Shown here in pieces: positions 10,607-49,791 of a stretch of DNA of 64,000 nt. The notes under the pieces are model-generated. The model was not told where the DNA came from. It saw only the letters and a program-made list of their open reading frames with translations, and did not search any database. Within the stretch, counting starts at the first letter, position 1, and every line of letters begins with the position of its first letter. This DNA is from an uncultured Candidatus Saccharibacteria bacterium (GTDB taxonomy: Bacteria > Patescibacteriota > Saccharimonadia > Saccharimonadales > CAZDQS01), in the NCBI GenBank assembly GCA_964507855.1, contig CAZDQS010000002.1, positions 91,284-155,283 of the forward strand. Direction: 5' to 3'. The position numbers and the translations under genes are program-made.

Positions 10607-10764
10607 GCATTACCAATCCTCGTATGGGTAAGGATGAAGTGAATAGTAGCTATATAAAATATGTGCTCCATGAGGGTACTCTATTCGAGAAAACTAGGCT
10701 GATTCGCAATCTTGATGTGAAGTTGGCTCTTCATAACCGAGAACTCGTAAAGCAAGATCGCTAA
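10570..10764 (+). pseudogene. orphan C-terminal gene fragment (unknown family)
   Basis: 64-codon ORF with a TTG start and no RBS, beginning right at the junction after the truncated VOC gene. It looks like the 3' end of a larger lost gene. Confidence 0.3.
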
Positions 10765-11657
10765 TCTGCAGTAAGATCAGTACGAGTATGTAGGATAGTG
10801 GTAAGTGGAGCAGCTTCTAGTACTTCTTTCGAAACCTGAGCCCAAGTATTAAAGATTTCGCTCCCAAACGGACCAACGGCCATATGCGAAGTTTGGTAAG
10901 AACCATCCTGCACGTTGTAGATACCCTGAGATTGGGTAATATCCATACGCCCAATACGATACAAGAAGCTGATATTAAGCACGACTAACATCGGTGGCAA
11001 CTCGATAATTAGCCCATCCGGTAACTCCATCTTGAGGCCACGAAACTCGCGTGTCGCCTGTCCATTTGTTACCGTATCACCCAAATCAGTCCAGACTTTT
11101 TGAGCCAACTCTCTAGCGGTCGTTTTATTTCCATCTTCTAGGGTAATAACATACTTTCTGTAGTCGGAATCACTGGGAAAGCCATTCGGCTCACCGTCCC
11201 TGAAAGCCACAGACCAGTTTTCGACTCTTTCGTGCACAACGCCACTAGGGGCTGACAGTTTTGTTTTGATAGCAGCATCTTCAGAGTCGACAAGATGTAA
11301 GAGATCGATTTTAAGTTTCTCGGCCATTCTTCTAGCCCCCCTTGAAAAGGGTGAATTCGACACGATGGCACCTTTTGTCGCGCCGACATCATGTAATTTA
11401 GTATGATAACCTTCAACTGTCGGAGTTCCGATAGTGGCTTTTTCATCCTTGCATTCAAAAGCAATAAAATCATACTCGCCAGGATCACGAAGAGTTACGT
11501 CTATTTGTCGACTTGATTCGGAAAGCTTACCCTGAATCCTCACATCTGCCATCACTTGTTTAGCCGGGTTAAACTTACTCAAGATACTATAAGTCTTTCT
11601 CTCAAAGTATTTACCGTTATTTCTTTTCTTTTTACGCCTGTTCTTCTTATTTGCCAT
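10761..11657 (-). CDS. restriction-endonuclease-like (Mrr_cat/PD-(D/E)xK) protein with an unknown C-terminal domain
   Basis: Start chosen at MANKKNRRKKKRNNGK (ATG 11657). Core motif IDVTLRD...YDFIAFECKDEK = D..(E)xK, followed by GAIVSNSPFSRGA, typical of Mrr-type REase folds. Confidence 0.6.
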   Translation of the reverse strand: MANKKNRRKKKRNNGKYFERKTYSILSKFNPAKQVMADVRIQGKLSESSRQIDVTLRDPGEYDFIAFECKDEKATIGTPTVEGYHTKLHDVGATKGAIVSNSPFSRGARRMAEKLKIDLLHLVDSEDAAIKTKLSAPSGVVHERVENWSVAFRDGEPNGFPSDSDYRKYVITLEDGNKTTARELAQKVWTDLGDTVTNGQATREFRGLKMELPDGLIIELPPMLVVLNISFLYRIGRMDITQSQGIYNVQDGSYQTSHMAVGPFGSEIFNTWAQVSKEVLEAAPLTTILHTRTDLTAD

Positions 11658-12360
11658 CGTGGTTAAATCTCCACTCATCCTCGTATTCATGTCTCTCGAG
11701 CTTGATAGCAAGACCTCGGGCATCAGGTTGACTAATGTAGCTCACGTGGGCCATAGTTAGGAGAGGAAGATTGTATATCACTAAATATACATCCGTAAAC
11801 GCATTAGTAAGGCCTTTGATTTCGTCATTTATTTTCTTACGGTCAATTGCGATCTCATCGCCAAATGCGTTGACTATGAGTATGCAGTTTTCGGGGTAAC
11901 TGTCGCGTTGTGTCATCTTTTTCTTTATGGCACTAACAACATCAGCATCTGCAATAGGCTTCTTTGGAAAGTAGCCCTGGGTCATGACCTGCTGTGCAAG
12001 TATTTTTGCTTTTGCTTGGTCATGCCAAATAGCTCCATCAGAGAGTAGGTTCTCGACCTGCCTCTTGGCCGGGTCTTCAATCCCGACGACAGCCTGGTAT
12101 GTATTACTGGTGCCAGCTTCTTCGCTCATCCAGTTGTAATACGATGCTACACAGCCAATACCTAGCAACTCACCCGTATTTAAGTCGATTGTCTTTCCGC
12201 TGGCAAAGTTCGCTGGTATGTCTACTGAGTTCAAATTATTGACTGGACGATTGTTGATAAGCAGCTTGACCTTATCGTTAATTGAACTCTTGGTATCAAA
12301 AACACTGAGAGCTATTTTGAGAGCATTATCCGGATGTAAACCAATTACATCATGTTTCAT
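11647..12360 (-). CDS. hypothetical protein, upstream partner of the REase-like gene
   Basis: 237-aa ORF whose stop (11647-11649) overlaps the downstream start by 11 nt (translational coupling). No motif I recognise. Confidence 0.55.
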   Translation of the reverse strand: MKHDVIGLHPDNALKIALSVFDTKSSINDKVKLLINNRPVNNLNSVDIPANFASGKTIDLNTGELLGIGCVASYYNWMSEEAGTSNTYQAVVGIEDPAKRQVENLLSDGAIWHDQAKAKILAQQVMTQGYFPKKPIADADVVSAIKKKMTQRDSYPENCILIVNAFGDEIAIDRKKINDEIKGLTNAFTDVYLVIYNLPLLTMAHVSYISQPDARGLAIKLERHEYEDEWRFNHDGK

Positions 12361-12436
12361 AGTCTAAGTTTAACACCTTAAGTATGGTTCTAGACCCACG
12401 TTTGAACAGATAAGAATAGGTTTCGGGATTCGAATC

Positions 12437-12465
12437 AAAAAACCGACCTTTCGGTCGGCTTTTGG
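12437..12465. terminator. bidirectional hairpin terminator
   Basis: AAAAAA-CCGACC-TTTC-GGTCGG-CTTTT. Confidence 0.5.
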
Positions 12466-12533
12466 ACTAACAATTCGAGTTTAGCTCTCTTGGCTGGTAT
12501 TTACACCCATGTGGGTCACGTTTGGTGTAAATC

Positions 12534-12653
12534 TTGGCTGGGGATGAGGGATTCGACTCACCTTCGGCGAGCCCGGAACTTCACGGTGGCAAGCACAGCT
12601 TGCCCCGGAAGATTCCCTTGCGAATTGCCACCGGCAATTCTCACCCCGATCAC
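12534..12653 (-). repeat. tRNA-Gln 3' segment (att-core homologue) interrupted by an 86-nt hairpin element (copy A)
   Basis: 12534-12556 equals the first 23 nt of the 36-nt att repeat and 12643-12653 matches its remainder (one C fewer). The intervening 12557-12642 folds into two long hairpins. Confidence 0.7.
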
Positions 12654-12684
12654 TTTTGGTCGGAGATTCGAATCACACAGAGCC

Positions 12685-12712
12685 AAAGAAAAAGCCCACA
12701 TAAAGTGGGCCC
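12685..12712 (-). terminator. intrinsic terminator downstream of the displaced tRNA-Gln 3' end
   Basis: Minus strand reads GCCCAC-TTTAT-GTGGGC-TTTTTCTTT, immediately after the 12718-12753 tRNA fragment. Confidence 0.65.
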
Positions 12713-12717
12713 TTTCT

Positions 12718-12753
12718 TTGGCTGGGGATGAGGGATTCGAACCCCCGATCACG
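12718..12753. repeat. prophage att repeat, tRNA-distal copy (36 bp)
   Basis: ttggctggggatgagggattcgaacccccgatcacg is identical to 48565-48600. Confidence 0.9.
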
Positions 12754-12772
12754 AATCTAGAATTTCAGGGGT

Positions 12773-12808
12773 GATTCTAACCCCCATGATTATTCTGATT
12801 CTAACCCC
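12773..12808. promoter_or_regulatory. candidate integrase arm-type sites (direct repeat GATTCTAACCCC x2)
   Basis: The 12-nt repeat occurs at 12773-12784 and 12797-12808, between the att core and the int stop codon. Confidence 0.4.
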
Positions 12809-12838
12809 TAAGAGAGAGAACTACAGTTAATCGTATCC

Positions 12839-12877
12839 GTTAACTACGATTGACTTGTGAATTCGCGTTAGCTACGA
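12839..12877. promoter_or_regulatory. second direct repeat GTTA(A/G)CTACGA x2 near att/int
   Basis: Copies at 12839-12849 and 12867-12877 differ at one position. Confidence 0.3.
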
Positions 12878-12931
12878 ATAGCTAAATATACCCCTTAGTA
12901 TACTGCCTATGCTAAGGAATGTCAAGCAGAA

Positions 12932-13783
12932 TCAGTAATTACTCGTATGGAATTGGCGGGCTACTTGAGCAACCTCCGGATTCTGCAAGTGTGAGTATAT
13001 ATCTATCGTTGTAGTGATACGGGAATGTCCGGCGATTTTCTGTACCATAGCCATTGGCGCGTGATTCTTAATGTAGTCCGTAATGGTTGAGTGCCGGAAT
13101 ACATGAGCTGATACGTTCTTATCTATGCCCGCCTCTAGGGCGCATTTACGGAGCATCTTATCTACTGTCGTGTAGTGTATTCTGCCGTACTGCCCGGACA
13201 TAAACAGTGGCTTGAATCTATCGTTTCGCTCAGCTAAATAAGCATCAAGATATTTTCGGGCTGTGCTGTCAATATAGACTTCTCGGTACTTGTCTCCCTT
13301 ACCGCAAACCATAGGTTCGTTATTGTTCACAACATCCTCTACGTTCAATGAAAGCAGCTCAGAAATTCTGCACCCTGTTGAGAACAGCATGGCGATAATT
13401 GCCTTATCACGGGTGTTTTTCGCAGCTTCAATCATGGCCTTTACTTCTTCGACCTCAAGCCAATTAGGATCTGGTTTCTCTACACTAGGAAGGCTGATAT
13501 CACGCGTATCAATAACCTTTAACCCTCGTGTTTCCATATAGCGCAAAACACTACGTAAACAGACGATATTCTTATAAATTGTTGAGGATTTATTAGGCTT
13601 CTGCCGCATGTACTCTTTCCACACCACGATACTGTCCATAGTAACCAGCTCTATAGGGGTATCGCCACACGCGTCTAAATACGACTGAATGGCACAATGA
13701 TAATTATGAATTGTCTTTGGTTTGCGGCCTTCGTAGCGTAGTACGTTAATTTCGTAAATATTAAAAGCTTCACTGAGCAACAT
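12932..13783 (-). CDS. int: tyrosine recombinase / phage integrase (XerC/D-like, 283 aa)
   Basis: Motifs STGCRISELLSL (Arg), HVFRHS (H-x-x-R) and TTTIDIYSH (Tyr). GAGGAG RBS. Adjacent to the att repeat. Confidence 0.9.
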   Translation of the reverse strand: MLLSEAFNIYEINVLRYEGRKPKTIHNYHCAIQSYLDACGDTPIELVTMDSIVVWKEYMRQKPNKSSTIYKNIVCLRSVLRYMETRGLKVIDTRDISLPSVEKPDPNWLEVEEVKAMIEAAKNTRDKAIIAMLFSTGCRISELLSLNVEDVVNNNEPMVCGKGDKYREVYIDSTARKYLDAYLAERNDRFKPLFMSGQYGRIHYTTVDKMLRKCALEAGIDKNVSAHVFRHSTITDYIKNHAPMAMVQKIAGHSRITTTIDIYSHLQNPEVAQVARQFHTSNY

Positions 13784-13978
13784 TGAACACTCCTCATCTG
13801 GTTAATGAGTACCTTAAACCCCTCCTAACAAAAACGCCCCAGGAGTATTCCCAGGGCTACAGACAGCGAGCGGTTGTTTTGAATCGTATCATCGTTTTCA
13901 ATCCAACCATACCCACCTCGCTCTTAAGTTGTTCCCTAAGTATACTTTGTAAAGTTAAGCGTTAGCAATATTGACTTT

Positions 13979-13992
13979 GTTAGAATTCTAAC
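13979..13992. promoter_or_regulatory. perfect 14-bp palindrome GTTAGAATTCTAAC upstream of int (candidate operator)
   Basis: Perfect palindrome just upstream (minus sense) of a TTGCTA-18-TATACT promoter-like sequence facing int. Confidence 0.3.
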
Positions 13993-14407
13993 AGTTAAGT
14001 TAGTGTTTTAATCTGTTTTGGATAATACCAACCCTGCCTGTTTGTTGAACATAGATTGAGGTAGGTTGGTGGTTAGTAAATAGGAGTCGAATTTGCATTG
14101 TTAAAGTTCAGGCAATAGCAAACAAGACCCTTTGGTTTTTGTACCCTCCAAAAAGTTTTAGCAATTATGCCCGGCCTTCTGCAGAAAAGCCGTACTTGTT
14201 TACCTGCCCTGCCCGTCCGTCGCTACATGAGTCTCGGTTTCGGCGGCCACTTCTTTTAACCCGGAGTGACGCTTTAAGGTGGTCGGGTATAGATGGGAGT
14301 AAAAAAACTCCCTTACCCAGTAACGTTGGGTTAAGAGAGTGTCAAGTGTGATTTTATGACATCCCTTACGGGAGGCCATAGATCGGTTCTGCATTCATAA
14401 AATACCA

Positions 14408-14474
14408 TAAAAAATTAAGGGACTCAAGTTAACGGCAAGAGTCCCTAATGGGAGGTATACATAAACTTCCCTCC
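14408..14474 (-). ncRNA. candidate short phage transcript (promoter followed by a terminator, ~65 nt)
   Basis: An extended -10 TGATATAAT (rc of 14481-14489) is followed by GGGACTC-13 nt-GAGTCCC-TTAATTTTTT (14408-14445). Only a 5-codon ORF lies inside. Confidence 0.3.
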
Positions 14475-14550
14475 TGTCATATTATATCATTTCGGGCTAT
14501 CATTCGCTACTGGCTCTGGTACCGCCTAAACCAGCCAAAGATTAACTGTG

Positions 14551-14862
14551 TTATTTCGAGAACTTGGCAACAAGATAGCTTATGACTCCCGTTACAATCC
14601 AGGTTAGGACAACGCCGATTACTACTTTAGAGTTTTTGAATAGCCGTTTGTCAATTTGTTCATCAGCATATTCCTGAACCTTACGCATAAACGGTACAGT
14701 TTCTGTGTATTCTTCAATAAGTTCCTTGGTGCGGGCGCGGAACTTCTCTTGTTGTAATAAGCGTGAAGCTTTCTCTACGATGACATCACTGGATGTTGTA
14801 GGCTGCTCGAGCAGAGTGTCAACGGGCAGAATGTCATCGGTTGGCTTTTTTTTCTGAGGCAT
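14551..14862 (-). CDS. phage membrane protein (C-terminal TM helix)
   Basis: 103-aa ORF in a tightly packed same-strand gene string; hydrophobic C-terminus VVIGVVLTWIVTGVISYLVA. Confidence 0.5.
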   Translation of the reverse strand: MPQKKKPTDDILPVDTLLEQPTTSSDVIVEKASRLLQQEKFRARTKELIEEYTETVPFMRKVQEYADEQIDKRLFKNSKVVIGVVLTWIVTGVISYLVAKFSK

Positions 14863-15088
14863 TATTAATCTCGTCTACTCGTCGCATTAGGGCAATCGCA
14901 ACTCGGAGAACTTCCTCGAGGTTAGTGAGATGGAAGTTTTGCTGTAATTGTTCCAGCTCCTCTAAAGCTCCATTGGTAAAAGCGACGGTGTATACTTCTT
15001 TGCCGTCTTCATCCGTGGTGCTACGTTGTCCTTTTATAGGCATACCCATATCATACAACAAGTTCAAGATTGCATGCTGCTTTTTCAC
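14834..15088 (-). CDS. hypothetical phage protein
   Basis: 84-aa ORF, contiguous with neighbours on the same strand. Confidence 0.5.
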   Translation of the reverse strand: MKKQHAILNLLYDMGMPIKGQRSTTDEDGKEVYTVAFTNGALEELEQLQQNFHLTNLEEVLRVAIALMRRVDEINNASEKKANR

Positions 15089-15400
15089 CTATTCACTCAG
15101 TCCGGGTATCTCTGCCTCTAGCTCATTCATCATCAGGTTTACATACCACTCTTGGGTTTGGTCGTCGGGGTACGGGTCAATGCTCTTTGGGAAGTGCCGC
15201 TCCTCGAGGGCTTGCAGCAGTTCCTCCGTTACCCTCACACCAAGTAAGTTGCCCTCGTCCGTCCGTAGCTCAACGTGGTTCAGGTGCGCCCATGCTTCGC
15301 TAAAGCGGCGGACACGGGTATTGCCGTAGTGGAAAGTGATACCTGCGGTTTCTATCGTGGGGCTTACCCACTCGCCATTCTCGTTTATTCGTTCACCCAT
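15089..15400 (-). CDS. hypothetical phage protein
   Basis: 103-aa ORF abutting the next gene with no gap. Confidence 0.5.
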   Translation of the reverse strand: MGERINENGEWVSPTIETAGITFHYGNTRVRRFSEAWAHLNHVELRTDEGNLLGVRVTEELLQALEERHFPKSIDPYPDDQTQEWYVNLMMNELEAEIPGLSE

Positions 15401-15588
15401 TCTATGCCGACCTCCTCGGTGAAAAGGTTATCGTTTAAGGTATTGAGCTGTTCGAGTAGCAGGTCTATCTTCTCCCATGCTTCACGGCGCACGACATTGC
15501 CTGTGTCGGGGTCGATGACAAACTCCCGCTGCTCGTCCAGCAGACGGTAGATAATTTGCTTTTCCAGTGACGCTTCTAGCTGTTTCAT
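15385..15588 (-). CDS. hypothetical phage protein
   Basis: 67-aa acidic ORF overlapping its neighbours by a few nt. Confidence 0.45.
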   Translation of the reverse strand: MKQLEASLEKQIIYRLLDEQREFVIDPDTGNVVRREAWEKIDLLLEQLNTLNDNLFTEEVGIEWVNE

Positions 15589-15875
15589 CGTCCGTATATC
15601 TTCCTGCGCTTGGTGGCGCTTAAATATATATCTGCTTCTTCTATGGCGTGTAGCATGACTTCATGGCTCGGCTTGATTGGCGGTGCTTCAGTGGCATGGC
15701 GTTGCTCATGGAGTCGCCGACAGATGAGCCGTTTGTTTTCTTCCAAGTTACGAAAGGTACTCTCTATGGACGTCGGGTAAGCCGAACGCGGCCAATAGTA
15801 GTGGTCAACATCCTCTTTGCACCCAACCTCGTAGTATTTGCACTCCGGGCTTGGATTGCAGGGGATGCGTTCCAC
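15585..15875 (-). CDS. hypothetical Cys/His-rich phage protein
   Basis: 96-aa ORF (CNPSPECKYYEVGCKEDVDHYYWPR...CRRLHEQRH); possible metal-binding fold. Confidence 0.5.
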   Translation of the reverse strand: MERIPCNPSPECKYYEVGCKEDVDHYYWPRSAYPTSIESTFRNLEENKRLICRRLHEQRHATEAPPIKPSHEVMLHAIEEADIYLSATKRRKIYGR

Positions 15876-15878
15876 TGG

Positions 15879-16079
15879 CTATTTCCTGTTTCTTTTAAGC
15901 CAGACGGACAAACCTTGCACCGCACCGCCTGCCAGTGCCGTGAGCGCATCGTTAACGGTCATTTCACCGTCTATGCCAGCCAGTGCCAGTAAGAGCATCC
16001 CACCGCCAGCTAGAAAGCCCACAATGGCCTTCTGGTTGCCTGCGATGATGAATATCATTGCCCTGCGTAGTAAATACAT
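15879..16079 (-). CDS. putative holin (two TM helices)
   Basis: 66 aa with two hydrophobic segments and a basic C-terminus (WLKRNRK), next to the endolysin. Confidence 0.5.
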   Translation of the reverse strand: MYLLRRAMIFIIAGNQKAIVGFLAGGGMLLLALAGIDGEMTVNDALTALAGGAVQGLSVWLKRNRK

Positions 16080-17310: not shown

Positions 17311-17934
17311 TTAGGCTGCTTCAGTTTCCGCTACTAGATACCCGTGGAAGAAATTTGTTTCTGCACTAGTGCCGAGTCCCATAGAGTAGGATTGAGTATG
17401 GCCGATGAGGACGGTGACGTAGTCGCCCGCTTCCAGCTCTAGCAGCGCCGATACTCCGACAAACATGGGTTGTGTGTTGCCATCGCTGTTGCGATTGCGG
17501 TCTCCGTACTTCACCCGCGAGCCGTTTTTATACAGATGCATATACACGATGTCGCCCGTCACCGCCGAGGCGTAGCTGCCAGCCTCAAAGTAGTACGTCC
17601 CAGCAATCGGCGCGGTATACCGTCCGGTAGAGGTGTCGAAGTCGCTGTTTGGGTCAAATTCCACGGCATTATAGACCACCGGCTCAAGAGTACTGGAATT
17701 TGGAACGCTGGAAGAGCTGGCACGATAGGCGCTGAACCTGTAGGGATTTGTCCATTTTTTTGGAGTTACTGAGCCGTCAGCTAGTTTTGAGCCGTCTATC
17801 GCAGCATTGGCAGCGATATTTGAATTATCAAGACTACCATTGATTTCATTAACAATGGTGTTTATAGGCGTGTTGTATTGTGAGACGGTTGCAGCCGACC
17901 CGTCAGAAGGAAGCGATACACTAATGTTACCCAA
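17311..17934 (-). CDS. tail fibre / receptor-binding protein with a C1q-like C-terminal head
   Basis: TTG start at 17934, 8 nt after GGAGAC in the conserved late leader. C-terminal RFSAY...VVYNAVEFDPNSDFDTSTGRYTAPIAGTYYFEAG matches the C1q/TNF-like signature. Confidence 0.6.
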   Translation of the reverse strand: MGNISVSLPSDGSAATVSQYNTPINTIVNEINGSLDNSNIAANAAIDGSKLADGSVTPKKWTNPYRFSAYRASSSSVPNSSTLEPVVYNAVEFDPNSDFDTSTGRYTAPIAGTYYFEAGSYASAVTGDIVYMHLYKNGSRVKYGDRNRNSDGNTQPMFVGVSALLELEAGDYVTVLIGHTQSYSMGLGTSAETNFFHGYLVAETEAA

Positions 17935-17948
17935 GGCAAGGTCTCCGA

Positions 17949-17976
17949 CCTGCCCGACGTTATAGTCATTATACCA
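17949..17976 (-). promoter_or_regulatory. phage late promoter and leader, copy 1
   Basis: Minus strand reads TGGTATAAT-GACTATAACGT-CGGGCAGGTCGGAGAC. Confidence 0.6.
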
Positions 17977-18279
17977 TTTTTGACATGGTAATATAAGGAT
18001 GCCCAGGTTCCGGTTCTTCCGGTCTTTCCCCTGGGCTTTTTTAGTACAAAGAAAAACAGCCCTTAATGGATGATGAAAGATTCCGTTTAACGCATGTCTG
18101 CGACAGTAACCACATTCGTTACTGATGAATCCCATACTGTCCGAGCTGTTTTGTAAGGTAGTATCTTTCCTTTATACCTTAACCTTACAACACACATATT
18201 AGCATAAGTAGTATAATTTGTCAATAACTTTATAGCATTTATGCTTGTATATTATCTTACATTATGGTATTGTTGCGCC

Positions 18280-18864
18280 ATGAATCAGTTTATTATTAAG
18301 AATAAGCTTGTTGTAACCGTAATTACGGGATTGATCGCCCTGATTGGCTTTAGTGCGTACATAGTTACCTCTAATGTCCTTGAAATGCCATCTGAGGCGC
18401 AAGTACAGAGTTCCACCACTGGATATAGCGGTTTAACAGTATCTGATAGCCCAAGTTCAACTTCCTCACAGCAGGAGTCCACTCCTGAACCAAATACACC
18501 TGTAACGACTCCCGTAGTAATTAGCCAAATGGATATACAGGAGCCTCAGGATGCTCCAGAAAGCACCTATCAGCCGCCAACAACGCATAATGAAGAACTG
18601 CCCAAAATAGACCGCTCTGCATACATACAGGCATGCAATGCGTCTAAAGATGCGGATATTGACTACAATCGCGCCTTGTATAACGCTGAAAAGGCGAATC
18701 ATACACGGAAACTTGAACAAATCGGTACAGAGTGGCGAAGTAGAGGTATGGGATTCAGTGGCGGCTATGAGCAAGCCAAGCAGAACGAAATAACCCGTCA
18801 CAATAACGCTTTAGCTGCTTTGGATGCTCAACTAGCGCAACTCAAGACGAAAGTCTGCGCTTAG
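18280..18864 (+). CDS. opposite-strand moron: membrane-anchored S/T/P-rich protein
   Basis: The only plus-strand prophage gene. Start MNQFIIKNK, then TM helix VVTVITGLIALIGFSAYIV, an S/T/P-rich linker and a Q/A-rich C-terminus. Confidence 0.5.
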   Translation: MNQFIIKNKLVVTVITGLIALIGFSAYIVTSNVLEMPSEAQVQSSTTGYSGLTVSDSPSSTSSQQESTPEPNTPVTTPVVISQMDIQEPQDAPESTYQPPTTHNEELPKIDRSAYIQACNASKDADIDYNRALYNAEKANHTRKLEQIGTEWRSRGMGFSGGYEQAKQNEITRHNNALAALDAQLAQLKTKVCA

Positions 18865-28902: not shown

Positions 28903-28916
28903 GGCGTTATTCCAGC

Positions 28917-34624: not shown

Positions 34625-35377
34625 TTAGTTTCGTGCTGCCATAGCCCGGTTGATAGCGTCATAGTTCTTCCGGAACCATTCCTGGCCGTTCTGCGCTACG
34701 AGCTGGTCAACGTTTTGCGGAGTAATGCTTTGGGAGTTCACGGAACTCGATACGGCATTTCCCCGTGGCACGGCGGCGGTTTGTTTGTGGGCTAAGGACT
34801 GAAGGGCTTCCTTCTTTCCTTGGGACTTCACAGCGTCCAAATTGCTTGCCTTTACCACCGCATAGAGAGCTTCGAGGTCTCCCGCTAGGTGAGGGCGTTT
34901 TACGAGTTCAGCTACCATGTCCTGTTCAAGTTCCCTTGCGTCAGGATGTGCGTTGAAAAAGTCACGAACCGCTTCTTTTACCTCCACACGCTGGACTCGT
35001 TTAAGCAATTCCGGATCTTGTCCGGTAGAATCAGCAATCTGCTCGGCGTACTCGTCTGAAGTATTAGTTAACGACTTCTCTAGTTCGCTGGCTTTTTGCC
35101 GTGTTCGCTGGTACTCCGCATTGTTGTCGTAGGCAATTTTGAGTAGTTTCTGTTCCCTCTCGGAAAGCTGTGAAACGTCCTCAATGCCTTGACCCTTTGC
35201 AAAGCTCTGGAGCTTTTCGTCTATACTGGGTAGTGAATCCTCTGATTCGCCCTGTGTCGATTCGCTCGGTTTATCGGTGGATTGAGATACCGCCGTCTCG
35301 TTGTCGTTCTGAACTGGTAGTGCTGTATCAGCGCCAGTATCTTGAGCGACAGATTCGGTAATGGTTTGTTCTTCCAT
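34625..35377 (-). CDS. scaffolding protein
   Basis: 250-aa acidic, helical, low-complexity protein between portal and capsid. Confidence 0.6.
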   Translation of the reverse strand: MEEQTITESVAQDTGADTALPVQNDNETAVSQSTDKPSESTQGESEDSLPSIDEKLQSFAKGQGIEDVSQLSEREQKLLKIAYDNNAEYQRTRQKASELEKSLTNTSDEYAEQIADSTGQDPELLKRVQRVEVKEAVRDFFNAHPDARELEQDMVAELVKRPHLAGDLEALYAVVKASNLDAVKSQGKKEALQSLAHKQTAAVPRGNAVSSSVNSQSITPQNVDQLVAQNGQEWFRKNYDAINRAMAARN

Positions 35378-35396
35378 CGTAATCCTTTTTCTGTCC

Positions 35397-35433
35397 CCTG
35401 CCCGAATGGGGAGACTAGAATATACCGGGCAGG
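35397..35433 (-). promoter_or_regulatory. variant late promoter flanked by inverted CCTGCCCG / CGGGCAGG
   Basis: Minus strand reads CCTGCCCGGTATATTCTAGTCTCCCCATTCGGGCAGG, upstream of the scaffold gene. Confidence 0.4.
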
Positions 35434-35510
35434 TATAGAAAGTAATCTTTCCGTTTAGTTTTTAAACTAATCCTAGTCTCTCCGTTCTGATAGGTGACAA
35501 TTAGAAAGCT

Positions 35511-35726
35511 TTACCGCCTCCTCTCTGCCACAAGGCTGTCTATGTGGAGTTTCACGGAACGGATTCCTCTCGCCTGCTGTGCTGCGTCTCTGGCGTTTTC
35601 CGGTGTCGTCTCGGCGGATTCATGTCGTGCGGTAATTTCAGAATCAAGCCACTTCATAAACTCCGCTCCGGCTTCGCTTTTTAAGAAGAATGTCTGGTAG
35701 GCTCGTCGTAAGTCGGCAGTTTTCAC
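35511..35726 (-). CDS. hypothetical phage protein
   Basis: 71-aa ORF overlapping the portal stop by 4 nt. Confidence 0.5.
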   Translation of the reverse strand: MKTADLRRAYQTFFLKSEAGAEFMKWLDSEITARHESAETTPENARDAAQQARGIRSVKLHIDSLVAERRR

Positions 35727-40208: not shown

Positions 40209-40458
40209 CTTGTTGTCCTCCTATCGGGAAGGCAAGGTGGACATCCTCTTGAACTGCCTCAAGAGTAAAGCCAGCAAGCTCTTCGTGTTCATAATCGCCG
40301 TGTTCATCCGCTATGACCCGTGTCTTTAGAGGCATGATGTGGCCGTTGGCTTCTAGGCAAAGCTTTCGCACAGTCGGGTAGTCGCGCTCATAAATTGCTA
40401 CATAGCCAAGGTACTCGCCACCTCGATACAGCTTTAGTTTTCGGTAGTCGCTCATCAC
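40195..40458 (-). CDS. hypothetical phage protein
   Basis: 87-aa ORF overlapping its neighbours. Confidence 0.5.
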   Translation of the reverse strand: MMSDYRKLKLYRGGEYLGYVAIYERDYPTVRKLCLEANGHIMPLKTRVIADEHGDYEHEELAGFTLEAVQEDVHLAFPIGGQQDDRP

Positions 40459-40763
40459 TCACTCTCCTTTATATTAGATTGCTCTGACAGTTTCAATATC
40501 GTTGATAGGTGTTTTAGGGTAATCTTTTCTGGGTTTTTAATCCAACTATTTACTGTCTGTCTTGATACCCCACACCTTTCAGCAAGCTCTTGCTGGGTGA
40601 TTGGTAGTTTTACGTAGGTGTCAAAGTATTCGAGGCACATCTCAATAGACTTGTCTGCCAGAAAGCCGATGTATTGGCGGTCAGGGTCGCCATAGTCAAT
40701 CGTGCGTTGATATAACTTGATTAGGTCTTTGCGTAGTCTGTCTTTATTCATCACTGCCCCCAT
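40455..40763 (-). CDS. HTH (XRE-type) DNA-binding protein
   Basis: QQELAERCGVSRQTVNSWIKNPEKITLKHL is a helix-turn-helix signature. Confidence 0.65.
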   Translation of the reverse strand: MGAVMNKDRLRKDLIKLYQRTIDYGDPDRQYIGFLADKSIEMCLEYFDTYVKLPITQQELAERCGVSRQTVNSWIKNPEKITLKHLSTILKLSEQSNIKESE

Positions 40764-47388: not shown

Positions 47389-47613
47389 TTAATCTTCAAA
47401 TGGTTTATCTATGTAGTGATAGTTCTGCCTGTCCAGCCAGTACTTGTCCGGCATGACAATTGCTTTTGTTTCAAGGACGTGCCGCTTAACGGGTATCCTG
47501 TAGGTTCTTGATTTTTGCGTGACGATTATCTTCTTGCTGCCTAATTCTCGGGCCAGCATTTCTCTCATTGGTGCAAATACGTCGATCATCGTATCCAAAA
47601 TGCCTTTCCCCAT
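47389..47613 (-). CDS. hypothetical phage protein
   Basis: 74-aa ORF. Confidence 0.45.
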   Translation of the reverse strand: MGKGILDTMIDVFAPMREMLARELGSKKIIVTQKSRTYRIPVKRHVLETKAIVMPDKYWLDRQNYHYIDKPFED

Positions 47614-47786
47614 TGCTTACGATTCATGGTTCCCACCCTTTCGTTACTTACGTTTGGTATGCCTTACGAGCCAACCAGTGGGCGAATACCGCCGGGACTA
47701 CATTGTTTGTCCTCTCCGCCCACCGGACGACCCGTAAGGAAACTCAGGAGTCGGCCAAGTCTCGCACAAGGCCGACCCACCCTGAG

Positions 47787-48320
47787 TTAGTAGCAAGACA
47801 CAATCCGTTTGTTACACACCGTCCAATGCCGCCAGCCGCCACTTGCGTAGAGCTTGAAGGCTTTGGCGATGTTCGCTTCAGGATTCTGCATCTCACTACA
47901 GCTTGGCCTGCCCGGAAGGAATCTCACTTGGAATAATCCGCATGACATCCCGTACCTCGTACCGTTCTGGAAATAAGTGAGGTGGCCGTCTCCAACGGCG
48001 GTAGGGTTACACCCCGATTCTGCCCGCATAACGTTGAGTGCCACGTTCACGTTCCAGTCGTACCGAGCTACCAAGTCTCTGTACTGCTCACACCCGACTG
48101 GATGTGAGACTGTTGCCACAACAGGTTTTACTGCCTCTTGTGGCTTCTCCGGTTTCGGTTCAGTTTGCGGCTGTGGGCTAGGTTCGACACGTTTGGACTC
48201 TTGAACTGTCGCTTGCACCGGCTGAGCGTTTACTGGCTCCTGTACCGAATTGTTAATGTTCCCCGGAGATACGAGCCATACTGTTATGAGTACGGCTATG
48301 AGTAGCTTGAGGCTGCCCAT
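47787..48320 (-). CDS. secreted lytic transglycosylase (SLT domain)
   Basis: Signal peptide, P/Q/E-rich linker, then MRAESGCNPTAVG...GLFQV, the catalytic Glu-Ser and GLxQ motifs of SLT. Confidence 0.75.
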   Translation of the reverse strand: MGSLKLLIAVLITVWLVSPGNINNSVQEPVNAQPVQATVQESKRVEPSPQPQTEPKPEKPQEAVKPVVATVSHPVGCEQYRDLVARYDWNVNVALNVMRAESGCNPTAVGDGHLTYFQNGTRYGMSCGLFQVRFLPGRPSCSEMQNPEANIAKAFKLYASGGWRHWTVCNKRIVSCY

Positions 48321-48474
48321 AATCCCCCTTACACCTCTGGGAACTCCATCCCAGCTTTGTTTAGTCGAAGCTAGTAGTGTCGTATCCCTCTACTTGAGGC
48401 CGATAACGTCACGTTCGCTTCACAGAGTTATTCACCCTGGGAAGTCACAGAACCGATCTATGGCCTCCATAAAG

Positions 48475-48503
48475 CAAAAAACCCGCTAACTTTCGTTAAC
48501 GGG
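48475..48503 (-). terminator. intrinsic terminator (second of two downstream of tRNA-Gln)
   Basis: Minus strand reads CCCGTTAAC-GAAA-GTTAGCGGG-TTTTTTG. Confidence 0.6.
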
Positions 48504-48516
48504 TACGTTTGGGTAC

Positions 48517-48542
48517 AAAAAATCCGGCTATTTCTAGCCGGA
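48517..48542 (-). terminator. intrinsic terminator (first downstream of tRNA-Gln)
   Basis: Minus strand reads TCCGGCTA-GAAA-TAGCCGGA-TTTTTTG. Confidence 0.65.
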
Positions 48543-48564
48543 TACAATCTTCTGTTTACTTCTC

Positions 48565-48600
48565 TTGGCTGGGGATGAGGGATTCGAACCCCCGATCACG
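48565..48600. repeat. prophage att repeat, tRNA-proximal copy (36 bp)
   Basis: Identical to 12718-12753; covers the 3' 35 nt of tRNA-Gln plus 1 nt. Confidence 0.9.
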
Positions 48601-48639
48601 GGACCAGAACCCGTTGCCTTACCGCTTGGCCAATCCCCA
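48566..48639 (-). tRNA. tRNA-Gln (anticodon CUG), CCA encoded
   Basis: Minus strand TGGGGAT-TG-GCCAAGCGGTAAGGC-A-ACGGG-TTCTGGT-CCCGT-GATC-GGGGG-TTCGAAT-CCCTC-ATCCCCA-GCCA. U1-A72 and a clean cloverleaf. Confidence 0.9.
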
Positions 48640-48706
48640 ATAAACTCTACTCATTCTACTATACTGATTATTAAGGTTGAGGATGCTTCTGCTCGAGCGG
48701 TAAGGT

Positions 48707-48874: not shown

Positions 48875-49162
48875 TTACCTGCTGTTTGGCAATCGCGGCC
48901 ATATGACTTTTGCTTTTATAGCATGAGGCGGCACATGGCCGAACTGCCTGCTATCGACGCTACCGTCGGGATTATCGCCAACCACGAACACGCCCTCGCG
49001 CTCAATCGCCTGAATGCGTTTTATCTTTTCTCTGCCGTCATGCCATATGATAACAACACTCCCTACCTGGGGTCGGCTCGGCCACTTGAGTGCAACAACA
49101 ATCTGGCCGGGCTTAAGCGTTGGTGCCATACTCATGCCGACAACGCGCCGCAGCAGTATCAT
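48875..49162 (-). CDS. sodX: S26-family peptidase, Ni-SOD maturation protease-like
   Basis: GMSMAPTL (catalytic Ser) and IKRI (Lys) in a 95-aa minimal signal-peptidase fold, in an operon with sodN. Confidence 0.7.
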   Translation of the reverse strand: MILLRRVVGMSMAPTLKPGQIVVALKWPSRPQVGSVVIIWHDGREKIKRIQAIEREGVFVVGDNPDGSVDSRQFGHVPPHAIKAKVIWPRLPNSR

Positions 49163-49414
49163 CTAGAGCTCCTGGCCAATGTACCGAAATCGCGGCATGC
49201 GTTTGCCATCATGTTCTACTTCCTCAAGAAACATCTCATATGGCCGCACCTGAATACGTGGACCGGGATGTTCCGCAAGATGATAGAGAGGTATGTAGGC
49301 AACGAGCACTTCCTCAGTTTCGGTATGCCGGGCCTTGCCTAAGACCAGGTAGTAGCGACGGGACTCGGGCGTACTCTTGTAGTGCTCGTAAATGCCAGGC
49401 GTTAGGTCGTTCAT
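49163..49414 (-). CDS. DUF1653-like protein
   Basis: Start at MNDLTPGIYEHYK (ATGA overlap with the sodN stop). YEHYK...YLVLGKARHTETEE.LVAY.PLY...PRF matches the DUF1653 pattern. Confidence 0.6.
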   Translation of the reverse strand: MNDLTPGIYEHYKSTPESRRYYLVLGKARHTETEEVLVAYIPLYHLAEHPGPRIQVRPYEMFLEEVEHDGKRMPRFRYIGQEL

Positions 49415-49791
49415 TTCTTCGTTTCGGCAAATATACCGGCAATCTCGTCGATCACCTCCAACAGCTTCCGACCCTCTGTTGGATCGAGATGATGCTTGCA
49501 CTCGCCGGCCTGCTTAGTGGCCTTCCAGAACAGGTCGTGCAGGTTCGGGAACTTTTCTAGGTGCTCTGGCTTAAAGTAATCCGTCCAGAGTACCCAGAGG
49601 TGATGCTTAACGAGCTCCGCCCGCTGTTCTTTGATGATAATCGCCCGCGTCTTGTTGTGGTCATCCAGGCCGTCGTACTTCTCCATTATCTTGAGTACCG
49701 ACTCGGCCTCGATACGCGCCTGCGCCGGATCATACACACCGCACGGCAAATCACAATGGGCATAGACCGGTTTTATAGAAAACAACTTCAT
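49411..49791 (-). CDS. sodN: nickel superoxide dismutase precursor
   Basis: An 11-aa leader then HCDLPCGVYDP, the Ni-hook of NiSOD. Confidence 0.85.
   Translation of the reverse strand: MKLFSIKPVYAHCDLPCGVYDPAQARIEAESVLKIMEKYDGLDDHNKTRAIIIKEQRAELVKHHLWVLWTDYFKPEHLEKFPNLHDLFWKATKQAGECKHHLDPTEGRKLLEVIDEIAGIFAETKK

Follow-up and report, generated by a model that had tools for sequence, protein, structure and literature searches.

Several temperate phages govern immunity with a small antisense RNA, and theirs are the described systems closest to the locus considered here, a 767-nucleotide (nt) gap (positions 13784–14550) upstream of the integrase gene, int, of a prophage in an uncultured Candidatus Saccharibacteria bacterium of the order Saccharimonadales (GenBank assembly GCA_964507855.1, contig CAZDQS010000002.1, positions 91,284 to 155,283). 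This 64,000-nt stretch is called the window below, and coordinates are counted from its first letter. The CI RNA of P4, the c4 RNA of P1 and P7, and the CA RNA of N15 confer antisense-RNA immunity; each is released by RNase P from the leader of its own target operon, finds its targets in the same transcript, and carries a short specificity region that co-varies with those targets among related phages. In lambda, sib is a local hairpin past the phage attachment site (attP) that acts in cis on the int mRNA through RNase III. In the mycobacteriophages BPs, Brujita and Charlie, as Broussard and colleagues reportedly described in 2013, attP is said to lie inside the repressor gene, where integration truncates and stabilizes the protein repressor. 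Phages of the Candidate Phyla Radiation (CPR) yield no switch to standard annotation, and, to our knowledge, almost nothing is known of how they choose or maintain lysogeny. Finally, the downstream transfer genes of Tn916 are promoterless while the element is integrated, and excision joins them to promoters at its other end, with transcripts that cross the attachment site (PMC5812530).

Comparison of the window with related phages suggests that a temperate Saccharibacteria phage controls its lysogeny from this gap, mainly through RNA, an explanation that, taken whole, we consider moderately likely. The gap would comprise, in order, a terminator of the late operon, a gene for a trans-acting small RNA of about 91 nt, a multi-helix element of about 110 nt, and an int promoter with a terminator-bearing leader. 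As in P4, P1, P7 and N15, a small phage RNA, not a protein, would block early or anti-repressor functions by base pairing. Unlike those RNAs, the one predicted here has its own promoter and terminator, carries its seed at the 5′ end, and sits beside int, 1.7 kb from its target in the excised circle and 34 kb from it in the prophage. The C4/CI antisense RNAs, which presumably form an Rfam family, have no match in the window, and the predicted RNA shows neither a match to their covariance model nor processing from the leader of its target operon. As with sib, an RNA element past attP is split from its module by integration and an RNA duplex would be the effector, but here the partner would be separately transcribed and the early genes are likely to be what is regulated. 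As in the three mycobacteriophages, an attP inside the regulatory unit would tie its state to integration, although here attP lies in a non-coding leader between promoter and early genes. No description of this arrangement of small RNA, leader and attP was found in the literature; antisense-RNA-like immunity combined with a Tn916-like topology of promoter and attachment site, in CPR phages, would be new.

A candidate small RNA and its complement in the early leader

A search for repeats over the prophage returned one perfect 21-nt inverted repeat, at 14371–14391 and 48448–48468, the sole such pair, and the phage-sense transcripts of its two copies are mutually complementary (21/21). One copy, arm1, begins the candidate small RNA, while the other, arm2, lies in the leader of the early genes. 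Promoters and terminators, here and throughout, are consensus predictions, with the promoter rules of the CPR host taken as sigma-70-like.

14301–14391, minus strand: candidate small RNA of 91 nt, with a single-stranded 5′ seed, stem-loop 1 and a terminator
14371–14391, minus strand: arm1, the first 21 nt of the small RNA, CAGAACCGATCTATGGCCTCC, perfect complement of arm2
48448–48468, minus strand: arm2, in the early-gene leader, GGAGGCCATAGATCGGTTCTG, perfect complement of arm1
14399–14427, minus strand: predicted small RNA promoter, TTGAGT-17-TATTTT with a TG extension, read from the sequence
48476–48543, minus strand: two intrinsic terminators between attL/tRNA-Gln and arm2, T1 at 48543–48517 and T2 at 48504–48476

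The −10 box of the small RNA promoter ends 7 nt before the first paired base, and the RNA closes with a 12-bp terminator (stem 14339–14308, U7 at 14307–14301). Its predicted fold has a minimum free energy of −30.6 kcal/mol (z −4.06), and 0/200 shuffles fold as well. Arm2, whose start lies 7 nt past the T-run of T2 and 128 nt ahead of the first early gene, forms the upper part of a predicted leader hairpin with a conserved base. The pair scores 21 against a shuffle maximum of 12; significance was judged by exact-match statistics in place of RNAduplex with shuffles on the whole RNAs, in which long sequences give large energies by chance. Neither the small RNA nor the early leader gave a pairing signal with the int leader. 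In its sequence the unit has the promoter-to-terminator layout, without an open reading frame (ORF) of note, that is general among trans-acting small RNAs, the sole ORF over it (64 amino acids (aa), 14200–14394) being not conserved.

Co-variation among related phages

Loci with both flanks were collected through integrase homologues, and eight relatives, with integrases 31–61% identical, have the same layout with different, co-varying sequences. The paired positions in seven of them are as follows; the eighth, L107, is described separately.

L018: 23/26
L104: 22/22
L106: 22/24
L108: 17/17
L109: 26/28
L024: 25/27
L186: 26/28

These seven pairs score 17–22, against shuffle maxima of 12–13. In a panel of 81 loci, made up of int relatives that are mostly more distant, only L104, L106, L108, L109 and L024 reach 16, and the other 76 score 15 or less. 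Positions 1–12 of arm1 are perfectly paired in 9/9 phages, with mismatches from position 13 on, and cognate duplexes reach −30 to −47.5 kcal/mol versus −5 to −28 kcal/mol for non-cognate ones. In every phage a sigma-70-type −10 box lies 5–8 nt ahead of arm1, and a hairpin or terminator comes after the arm; the small RNA promoters of the eight relatives are stronger than that of the window at this same spacing, and their predicted RNAs measure about 45–100 nt. Arm2, for its part, starts in all nine phages 4–8 nt after a terminator that follows a tRNA-like attP. Complementarity of seed and target kept through co-variation, another general mark of trans-acting small RNAs, is thereby found in nine phages. 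Sequence comparison establishes the pairing, its co-variation and its promoter and terminator context, and we think it very likely that the 21-nt pairing is functional.

The early operon of L107 runs divergently, in the opposite direction to int and the small RNA gene. The small RNA was predicted from its promoter/terminator pattern before a partner was sought, and a search with the arm's reverse complement located a second copy 313 nt upstream, direct and not inverted. On the early-operon strand the order is tRNA-like attP, terminator, arm2 and leader; the orientation of the repeat flips along with the direction of early transcription, and the transcripts stay complementary. Arm2 is flanked there by GGAGGCCAT... 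and TGACTTCCCAGGGT, which are homologous to the flanks in the window (the latter, at 48447–48434, being common to both), and the first early genes are homologous as well. The 12-nt seed, in contrast, differs in both partners (CAGAACCGATCT/AGATCGGTTCTG in the window, AAGATCCTTGTC/GACAAGGATCTT in L107), so that the two loci, compared by sequence, are a case of clean co-variation within a conserved frame. The divergence of the small RNA and early promoters in L107 recalls a CI/Cro switch, except that a small RNA gene occupies the place of the repressor; the window has no divergent pair, and its helix-turn-helix (HTH) gene lies elsewhere.

A promoter past int and the early operon

12897–12925, minus strand: predicted strong promoter, TTGACA-17-TATACT, 11/12 consensus matches

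This promoter starts 7 nt past the int stop codon and is directed through attP/attR, facing the terminators, arm2 and the early genes in the excised circle and host DNA in the prophage. A near-consensus promoter follows int in 8/8 co-linear phages, lying 6–35 nt past the stop codon in L104, L106, L108, L109, L024 and L186 and at 443 nt, past an inserted tRNA-like gene, in L018. The promoter map holds no consensus promoter from 48565 to 43025. Because the post-int promoter lies across attP and no other consensus promoter precedes the early genes, the early operon would be uncoupled by integration, and we infer that integration disconnects it from its promoter. By consensus prediction the layout is that of Tn916, with an outward promoter through the attachment site and promoterless genes at the other end; in the window, too, the promoter after int faces attP and the early genes. 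Unlike Tn916, which is a conjugative transposon with no small RNA pair, read-through is here predicted from the promoter consensus, and two terminators intervene.

A proposed mechanism

The small RNA would be made constitutively from the prophage and would pair with any early-leader transcript, its unpaired 5′ end, 21 nt long and with a core seed of 12 nt, engaging the early-leader hairpin past attP and the terminators. Such transcripts could arise by read-through from the tRNA gene, or they could be the early RNAs of a genome that has been excised or is superinfecting the cell. Pairing would silence these transcripts through cleavage of the 21–28-bp duplex, refolding of the leader, or termination, and the silencing would provide a seed-specific, phage-specific immunity while mopping up read-through from the host tRNA. 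The post-int promoter would be the early promoter, with integration unplugging the early operon and excision reconnecting it. Transcription, the direction of regulation and the uncoupling of the promoter are what we infer from the layout.

Structured RNA elements and other features of the gap

On either strand the gap folds more stably than its shuffled versions (z −3.3 and −3.7), and a gene-free gap upstream of int also occurs in relatives with integrases 54–61% identical, where 626–1383 nt are without called genes. The original prediction, made from the letters of the window, had described an ORF-poor, hairpin-rich region, and its features lie at, or a few bases from, the places it gave them. 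The ORFs are indeed implausible, at 60–70 aa with no Pfam match and none conserved by tblastx; the prediction's alternative of control by an unrecognized small protein gained no support: Pfam and tblastx returned no conserved micro-protein encoded in the gap. Alignment with related prophages found conserved RNA structure in the gap and no conserved small ORF. An Rfam cmscan (E ≤ 1 on 12000–16000 and 47600–48700, and the gathering score over the whole window) returned no family in the gap or the early leader, only tRNA and chance matches. The further features of the gap are these:

14409–14489, minus strand: end of the late/lysis unit, with the extended −10 TGATATAAT at 14489–14481, a hairpin at 14474–14450 and a terminator stem at 14445–14419
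14106–14221, minus strand: conserved multi-helix RNA element of ~110 nt, with helices P1, P1b, P2, a weak P3, and P4
14032–14054, minus strand: second conserved motif, CTATGYTC-N-AAACAGGCAGG, then TGGTATTAT at 14030–14022
13827–13992, minus strand: int control region, with a palindrome at 13992–13979, a promoter at 13968–13939, a leader hairpin at 13923–13866 and a terminator at 13857–13827
13784–13795, minus strand: int ribosome-binding site, 3′ of the int-leader terminator

At the upstream end, the extended −10 that had been seen to run into a terminator was recovered as the reverse complement of 14481–14489, with the T-run after the stem reaching 14409, and the hairpin at 14450–14474 was likewise confirmed. 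This unit folds at −20.8 kcal/mol (z −2.1) and may also be the source of a ~65-nt transcript; the short transcript (14474–14409) has no complementary target anywhere in the prophage. The same tandem layout, a short terminated unit followed by the small RNA gene, is present in L018, L020, L183 and L184. Two hairpins had also been pointed out: TCCC-GTAA-GGGA is at 14362–14373, while GGGAGT/ACTCCC is present with a T7 loop at 14295–14312 but more plausibly represents the 3′ half of the 12-bp small RNA terminator (14339–14301) together with its U-tail.

A stem with G–U pairs, said to form in minus-sense RNA, is found at 14173–14191 and constitutes P2 of the multi-helix element. The element rests on four sequences, the window, L104, L017 and L184, each of which folds separately into the same architecture; stems P2 and P4 are fully compensated, there are 5–9 G–U pairs per RNA, and the energies are −33 to −40 kcal/mol in the sense orientation versus −15 to −21 kcal/mol in the antisense. 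Around it, ~290 nt (about 14030–14300) are conserved at the nucleotide level in L104, L017 and L184 only, as found by nhmmer. With no Rfam match, 14106–14221 is a candidate for a new structured RNA family read in the phage sense. RNAalifold on a MAFFT alignment of the ~300-nt block returned a weak consensus of −10.8 kcal/mol, a value affected by misalignment, and a pattern scan for more copies of the block in viral contigs gave chance matches only.

The 5′ strand of P1 is the CGGGCAGG motif (CGGGCAG motif) of the late leaders. Six late promoters were located on the minus strand (37478, 33667, 28943, 25636, 21592 and 17976), each of the form TGnTATAAT, 9–10 nt, then (A)ACACGGGCAGG(TCGGAG). A copy of the late-leader motif in the gap, claimed by the original prediction, is present as CGGGCAGGGCAGG at 14203–14215, with one further copy at 28912 (1 mismatch; 0.07 expected by chance), and so is its second box, TGGTATTAT, the reverse complement of 14022–14030. 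The second motif, at 14032–14054, is invariant in the alignment of the window, L104 and L017 and resembles the late-leader motif.

Some further observations concern the late signals themselves. The late-leader motif can fold as a 5′ hairpin presenting the ribosome-binding site, and the late-promoter motif is conserved in related phages (L104:1051, L018:2568), with degenerate copies in the gap at 14215 and 14040. An inverted pair of late-leader motifs, CCTGCCCG ... CGGGCAGG, occurs at 35404–35433 in the intergenic gap (35377–35511) that separates the portal and capsid-region genes. A tail-fibre-like ORF with a C1q domain (17311–18135) holds a late promoter and leader inside its 5′ part (17932–17976); it is probably annotated too long, the TTG at 17934 with a GGAG ribosome-binding site being the likelier start. 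A supposed ATTG-N13-CAAT operator was discarded, its matches being at chance level.

Nearest int, the perfect 14-bp palindrome GTTAGAATTCTAAC (13979–13992) was found as described, and the TTGCTA-18-TATACT promoter assigned to int is present at 13968–13939, but another terminator (13857–13827) intervenes before the gene. The int leader, 103 nt with a long hairpin and the terminator, folds at −35.6 kcal/mol (z −3.27). In L108, L109 and L024 a hairpin or terminator encloses the int ribosome-binding site, and a conserved structured element precedes that site in L018, L020, L021 and L022. Because the relatives bury this site or precede it with structure, leader-level control of int appears to be general in the clade. 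The element of 67 nt upstream of the int start (−79 to −13 in L018, at the same place in L020, L021 and L022) is 91% identical between L018 and L020, with an inner hairpin that co-varies (CTAG..CTAG versus CTGG..CCAG); this int-leader structure is unlike that of the window.

The prediction's suggestion that lysogeny and integration may be under RNA-based control gains strong comparative support from the co-varying small RNA pair and the conserved multi-helix RNA, although the pairing itself had gone unseen and the features stressed in its place appear to be mostly accessory.

Alternative explanations

The two 21-bp copies might instead be DNA sites for a phage protein, such as operators, roadblocks, recombinase arm sites or inversion sites. 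Arm1 overlaps the transcription start, as operators often do, the arm mismatches lack a G–U bias, and in L107 the att core lies between the copies, about 70 nt from one and 200 nt from the other. This reading is nonetheless highly improbable in our judgement: the switch from inverted to direct occurs exactly with the inversion of the early operon and keeps the RNAs complementary, the copies are non-palindromic and 17–28 bp long, arm2 is not located at a promoter, the integrase lacks an arm-binding domain, and arm1 lies about 1.6 kb from the att core in eight phages. RNA–RNA pairing is favoured over a DNA site because the repeat is direct in L107 and its transcripts are still complementary, and L107 argues for deciding most of this question in favour of RNA pairing. 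If the arms do act as RNA, they could conceivably serve as a sensor of topology, in which arm2 leader RNA, made efficiently only when excision joins it to the post-int promoter, would pair with the nascent small RNA and keep its terminator from forming; transcription would then continue through the downstream elements into int, confining Int production to the circular state and ending it after integration. The arms flank int and attP in the co-linear phages, the int leaders have terminators or buried ribosome-binding sites, and in five or six of the nine phages the 5′ half of the terminator stem is made by the 3′ part of arm1 (L109, L024, L018, L104 and L107, with L108 a marginal case). In the window, L106 and L186, however, arm1 overlaps stem-loop 1 alone and not the terminator; pairing in trans would have to outrun terminator folding, which is demanding, and the window has a separate int promoter with a second terminator downstream. 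We regard such a sensor as quite improbable.

Another possibility, which seems unlikely to us, is a conventional protein switch, with an HTH protein or an unrecognized small protein as the repressor, the gap as an ordinary int region, and the small RNA as an accessory fine-tuner or an insulator against read-through from the tRNA. The protein that comes into question is the following:

40455–40763, minus strand: XRE-family HTH protein of 102 aa (Pfam HTH_3, 31.5 bits, E 1.8e-7; PHROG regulator families)

It is the only recognizable transcription regulator of the prophage, its HTH_3 match lies above the Pfam threshold, and its PHROG families include repressors and regulators; palindromes near the int promoter would also suit such a switch. 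Its presence qualifies the original claim that no repressor is recognizable, since an XRE/Cro-CI-type protein is encoded, while the companion claim that there is no CI/Cro-like divergent pair is upheld. The gene is single and sits on the same strand, 8 kb inside the early/middle operon, with no divergent partner and, in the promoter map, no consensus promoter to itself; a divergent HTH repressor and cro with shared operators beside the early genes, as in CI/Cro systems, is not what is seen. A second protein bears on the question, as a conserved protein of ~100 aa is encoded between the small RNA and int in L022, L023, L106, L108, L109, L024 and L186, and near its C terminus it carries a motif resembling IADKLVDKF...F..KAAY.LSE..I......KNP...F. 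The protein could be a regulator or, as a recombination directionality factor, help with excision, but neither Pfam nor PHROG places it in a family and the window lacks it; among the regulatory features of the clade, the small RNA/target pair is conserved best. As to the other small genes near the gap, an 84-aa protein (14834–15088) was considered as a ribbon-helix-helix regulator and rejected (AlphaFold model poor, pLDDT 68; nothing with a matching fold at E < 0.3). The gene that immediately precedes the gap in L018 encodes nothing similar to it, and the neighbouring 103-aa protein (14551–14862) is likewise unlike the product of the last gene in L017.

Several points weigh against control of lysogeny by the small RNA pair. 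The HTH_3 protein could be a conventional repressor, a role that is compatible with the RNA model. Two strong terminators (48543–48476) lie between the post-int promoter and arm2, and neither an antitermination device nor a dedicated promoter for the arm2-bearing transcript was found; in L107 the early promoter is weak by consensus. The distance of 128 nt from arm2 to the first start codon makes simple blocking of a ribosome-binding site unlikely. The G–U fit of the arm mismatches is 4 in the phage sense versus 5 in the antisense. Finally, a small RNA was predicted in L023, L101 and L103 with no partner on their contigs, where the searches returned only the small RNA copy itself; mis-set arms, mismatches at fixed positions of the pattern, or real absence could account for this.

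The prophage, its attachment sites and its host

The prophage, of ~35.8 kb (about 12753–48564), sits in a tRNA-Gln gene of the Saccharimonadales genome, with these boundaries and integrase:

48565–48639, minus strand: attL, an intact host tRNA-Gln(CTG) (ARAGORN; Rfam tRNA, 60.1 bits)
12718–12786, minus strand: attR, with a second copy of the 35-bp core at 12752–12718, adjoining the integrase gene
12932–13783, minus strand: tyrosine integrase of 283 aa (Pfam Phage_integrase, 113 bits)

The 35-bp att core, GTGATCGGGGGTTCGAATCCCTCATCCCCAGCCAA on the minus strand at 48599–48565, is the 3′ end of the tRNA-Gln(CTG). At attR the core belongs to a minihelix resembling the acceptor and T arm of a tRNA (a sub-threshold Rfam tRNA match, 24.6 bits, E 0.063), which would be part of the transcript from the post-int promoter and might act as a processing signal. 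On the phage side of attR (12722–12786, minus strand), the 5′ acceptor strand TGGGGGT is kept and pairs with the core. The integrase has only SAM-like and catalytic domains according to Pfam, with the N-terminal arm-binding domain absent; the arm-binding domain and the arm sites within ~150 bp of the core that typify lambda-type integrases are not found. Its homologues, at 43–61% identity, occur in Saccharimonadales-type contigs. One of them carries the Saccharimonadales/Saccharibacteria label, and the TrmD of the host is 80–85% identical to proteins so named. The INPHARED phage collection holds no DNA match to the prophage, and scans for int relatives with single proteins found no close ones.

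The one-strand layout with a single exception, noted in the original prediction, was confirmed, as all plausible genes between the core copies are on the minus strand except 18241–18864, a moron. In minus-strand order, tRNA-Gln/attL and the two terminators are followed by early genes (encoding an SLT_3 lysozyme-like protein, YqaJ, HNH and the HTH_3 protein), then by terminase gp3, structural and lysis genes, five small genes, the 767-nt gap, int and attR.

Further traces of integration were seen nearby. A third copy of the att core, of 22 nt, occurs at 12535–12556, 184 nt past attR, and is probably the mark of an older integration at the same tRNA; near it is a stretch of lower GC (10.7–12.4 kb, GC 0.44–0.46) that encodes an Mrr_cat restriction-endonuclease-like protein (10761–11723). 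Beyond the other edge of the prophage, the host encodes on the minus strand a nickel superoxide dismutase (Sod_Ni, E 5e-45; 49411–49791) and a short S26/S24-type peptidase (48875–49162), such a peptidase being the usual maturation protease of that enzyme. Many contigs with this integrase family (L013–L016, L017, L020, L183 and L184) end 120–210 nt past int, at the att core, in keeping with the core being a repeat or with samples that mix integrated and excised phage. The L184 contig, of 13,578 nt, may carry a homologue of TrmD (P0239), which, if so, would point to a much shorter element adjoining host genes.

Implications for phages of the Candidate Phyla Radiation

Judging from these comparisons, phages of this group probably control lysogeny largely through RNA. 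A wider scheme, in which the clade and perhaps other CPR phages too would combine repressor-free lysogeny, promoter unplugging and small RNA immunity, with the pair and the multi-helix element sensing circularity and gating int, is tentative and somewhat doubtful. The ~110-nt multi-helix element is itself a candidate new RNA family. If it is true that integration uncouples the early promoter, the circularization-dependent expression of Tn916 would extend to tailed phages. The co-varying pair of small RNA and leader offers a concrete, testable determinant of immunity specificity, and the pattern of promoter, seed and terminator beside int, with a complement past attP and a terminator, is a signature by which such prophages could be recognized and assigned to immunity groups from sequence alone.

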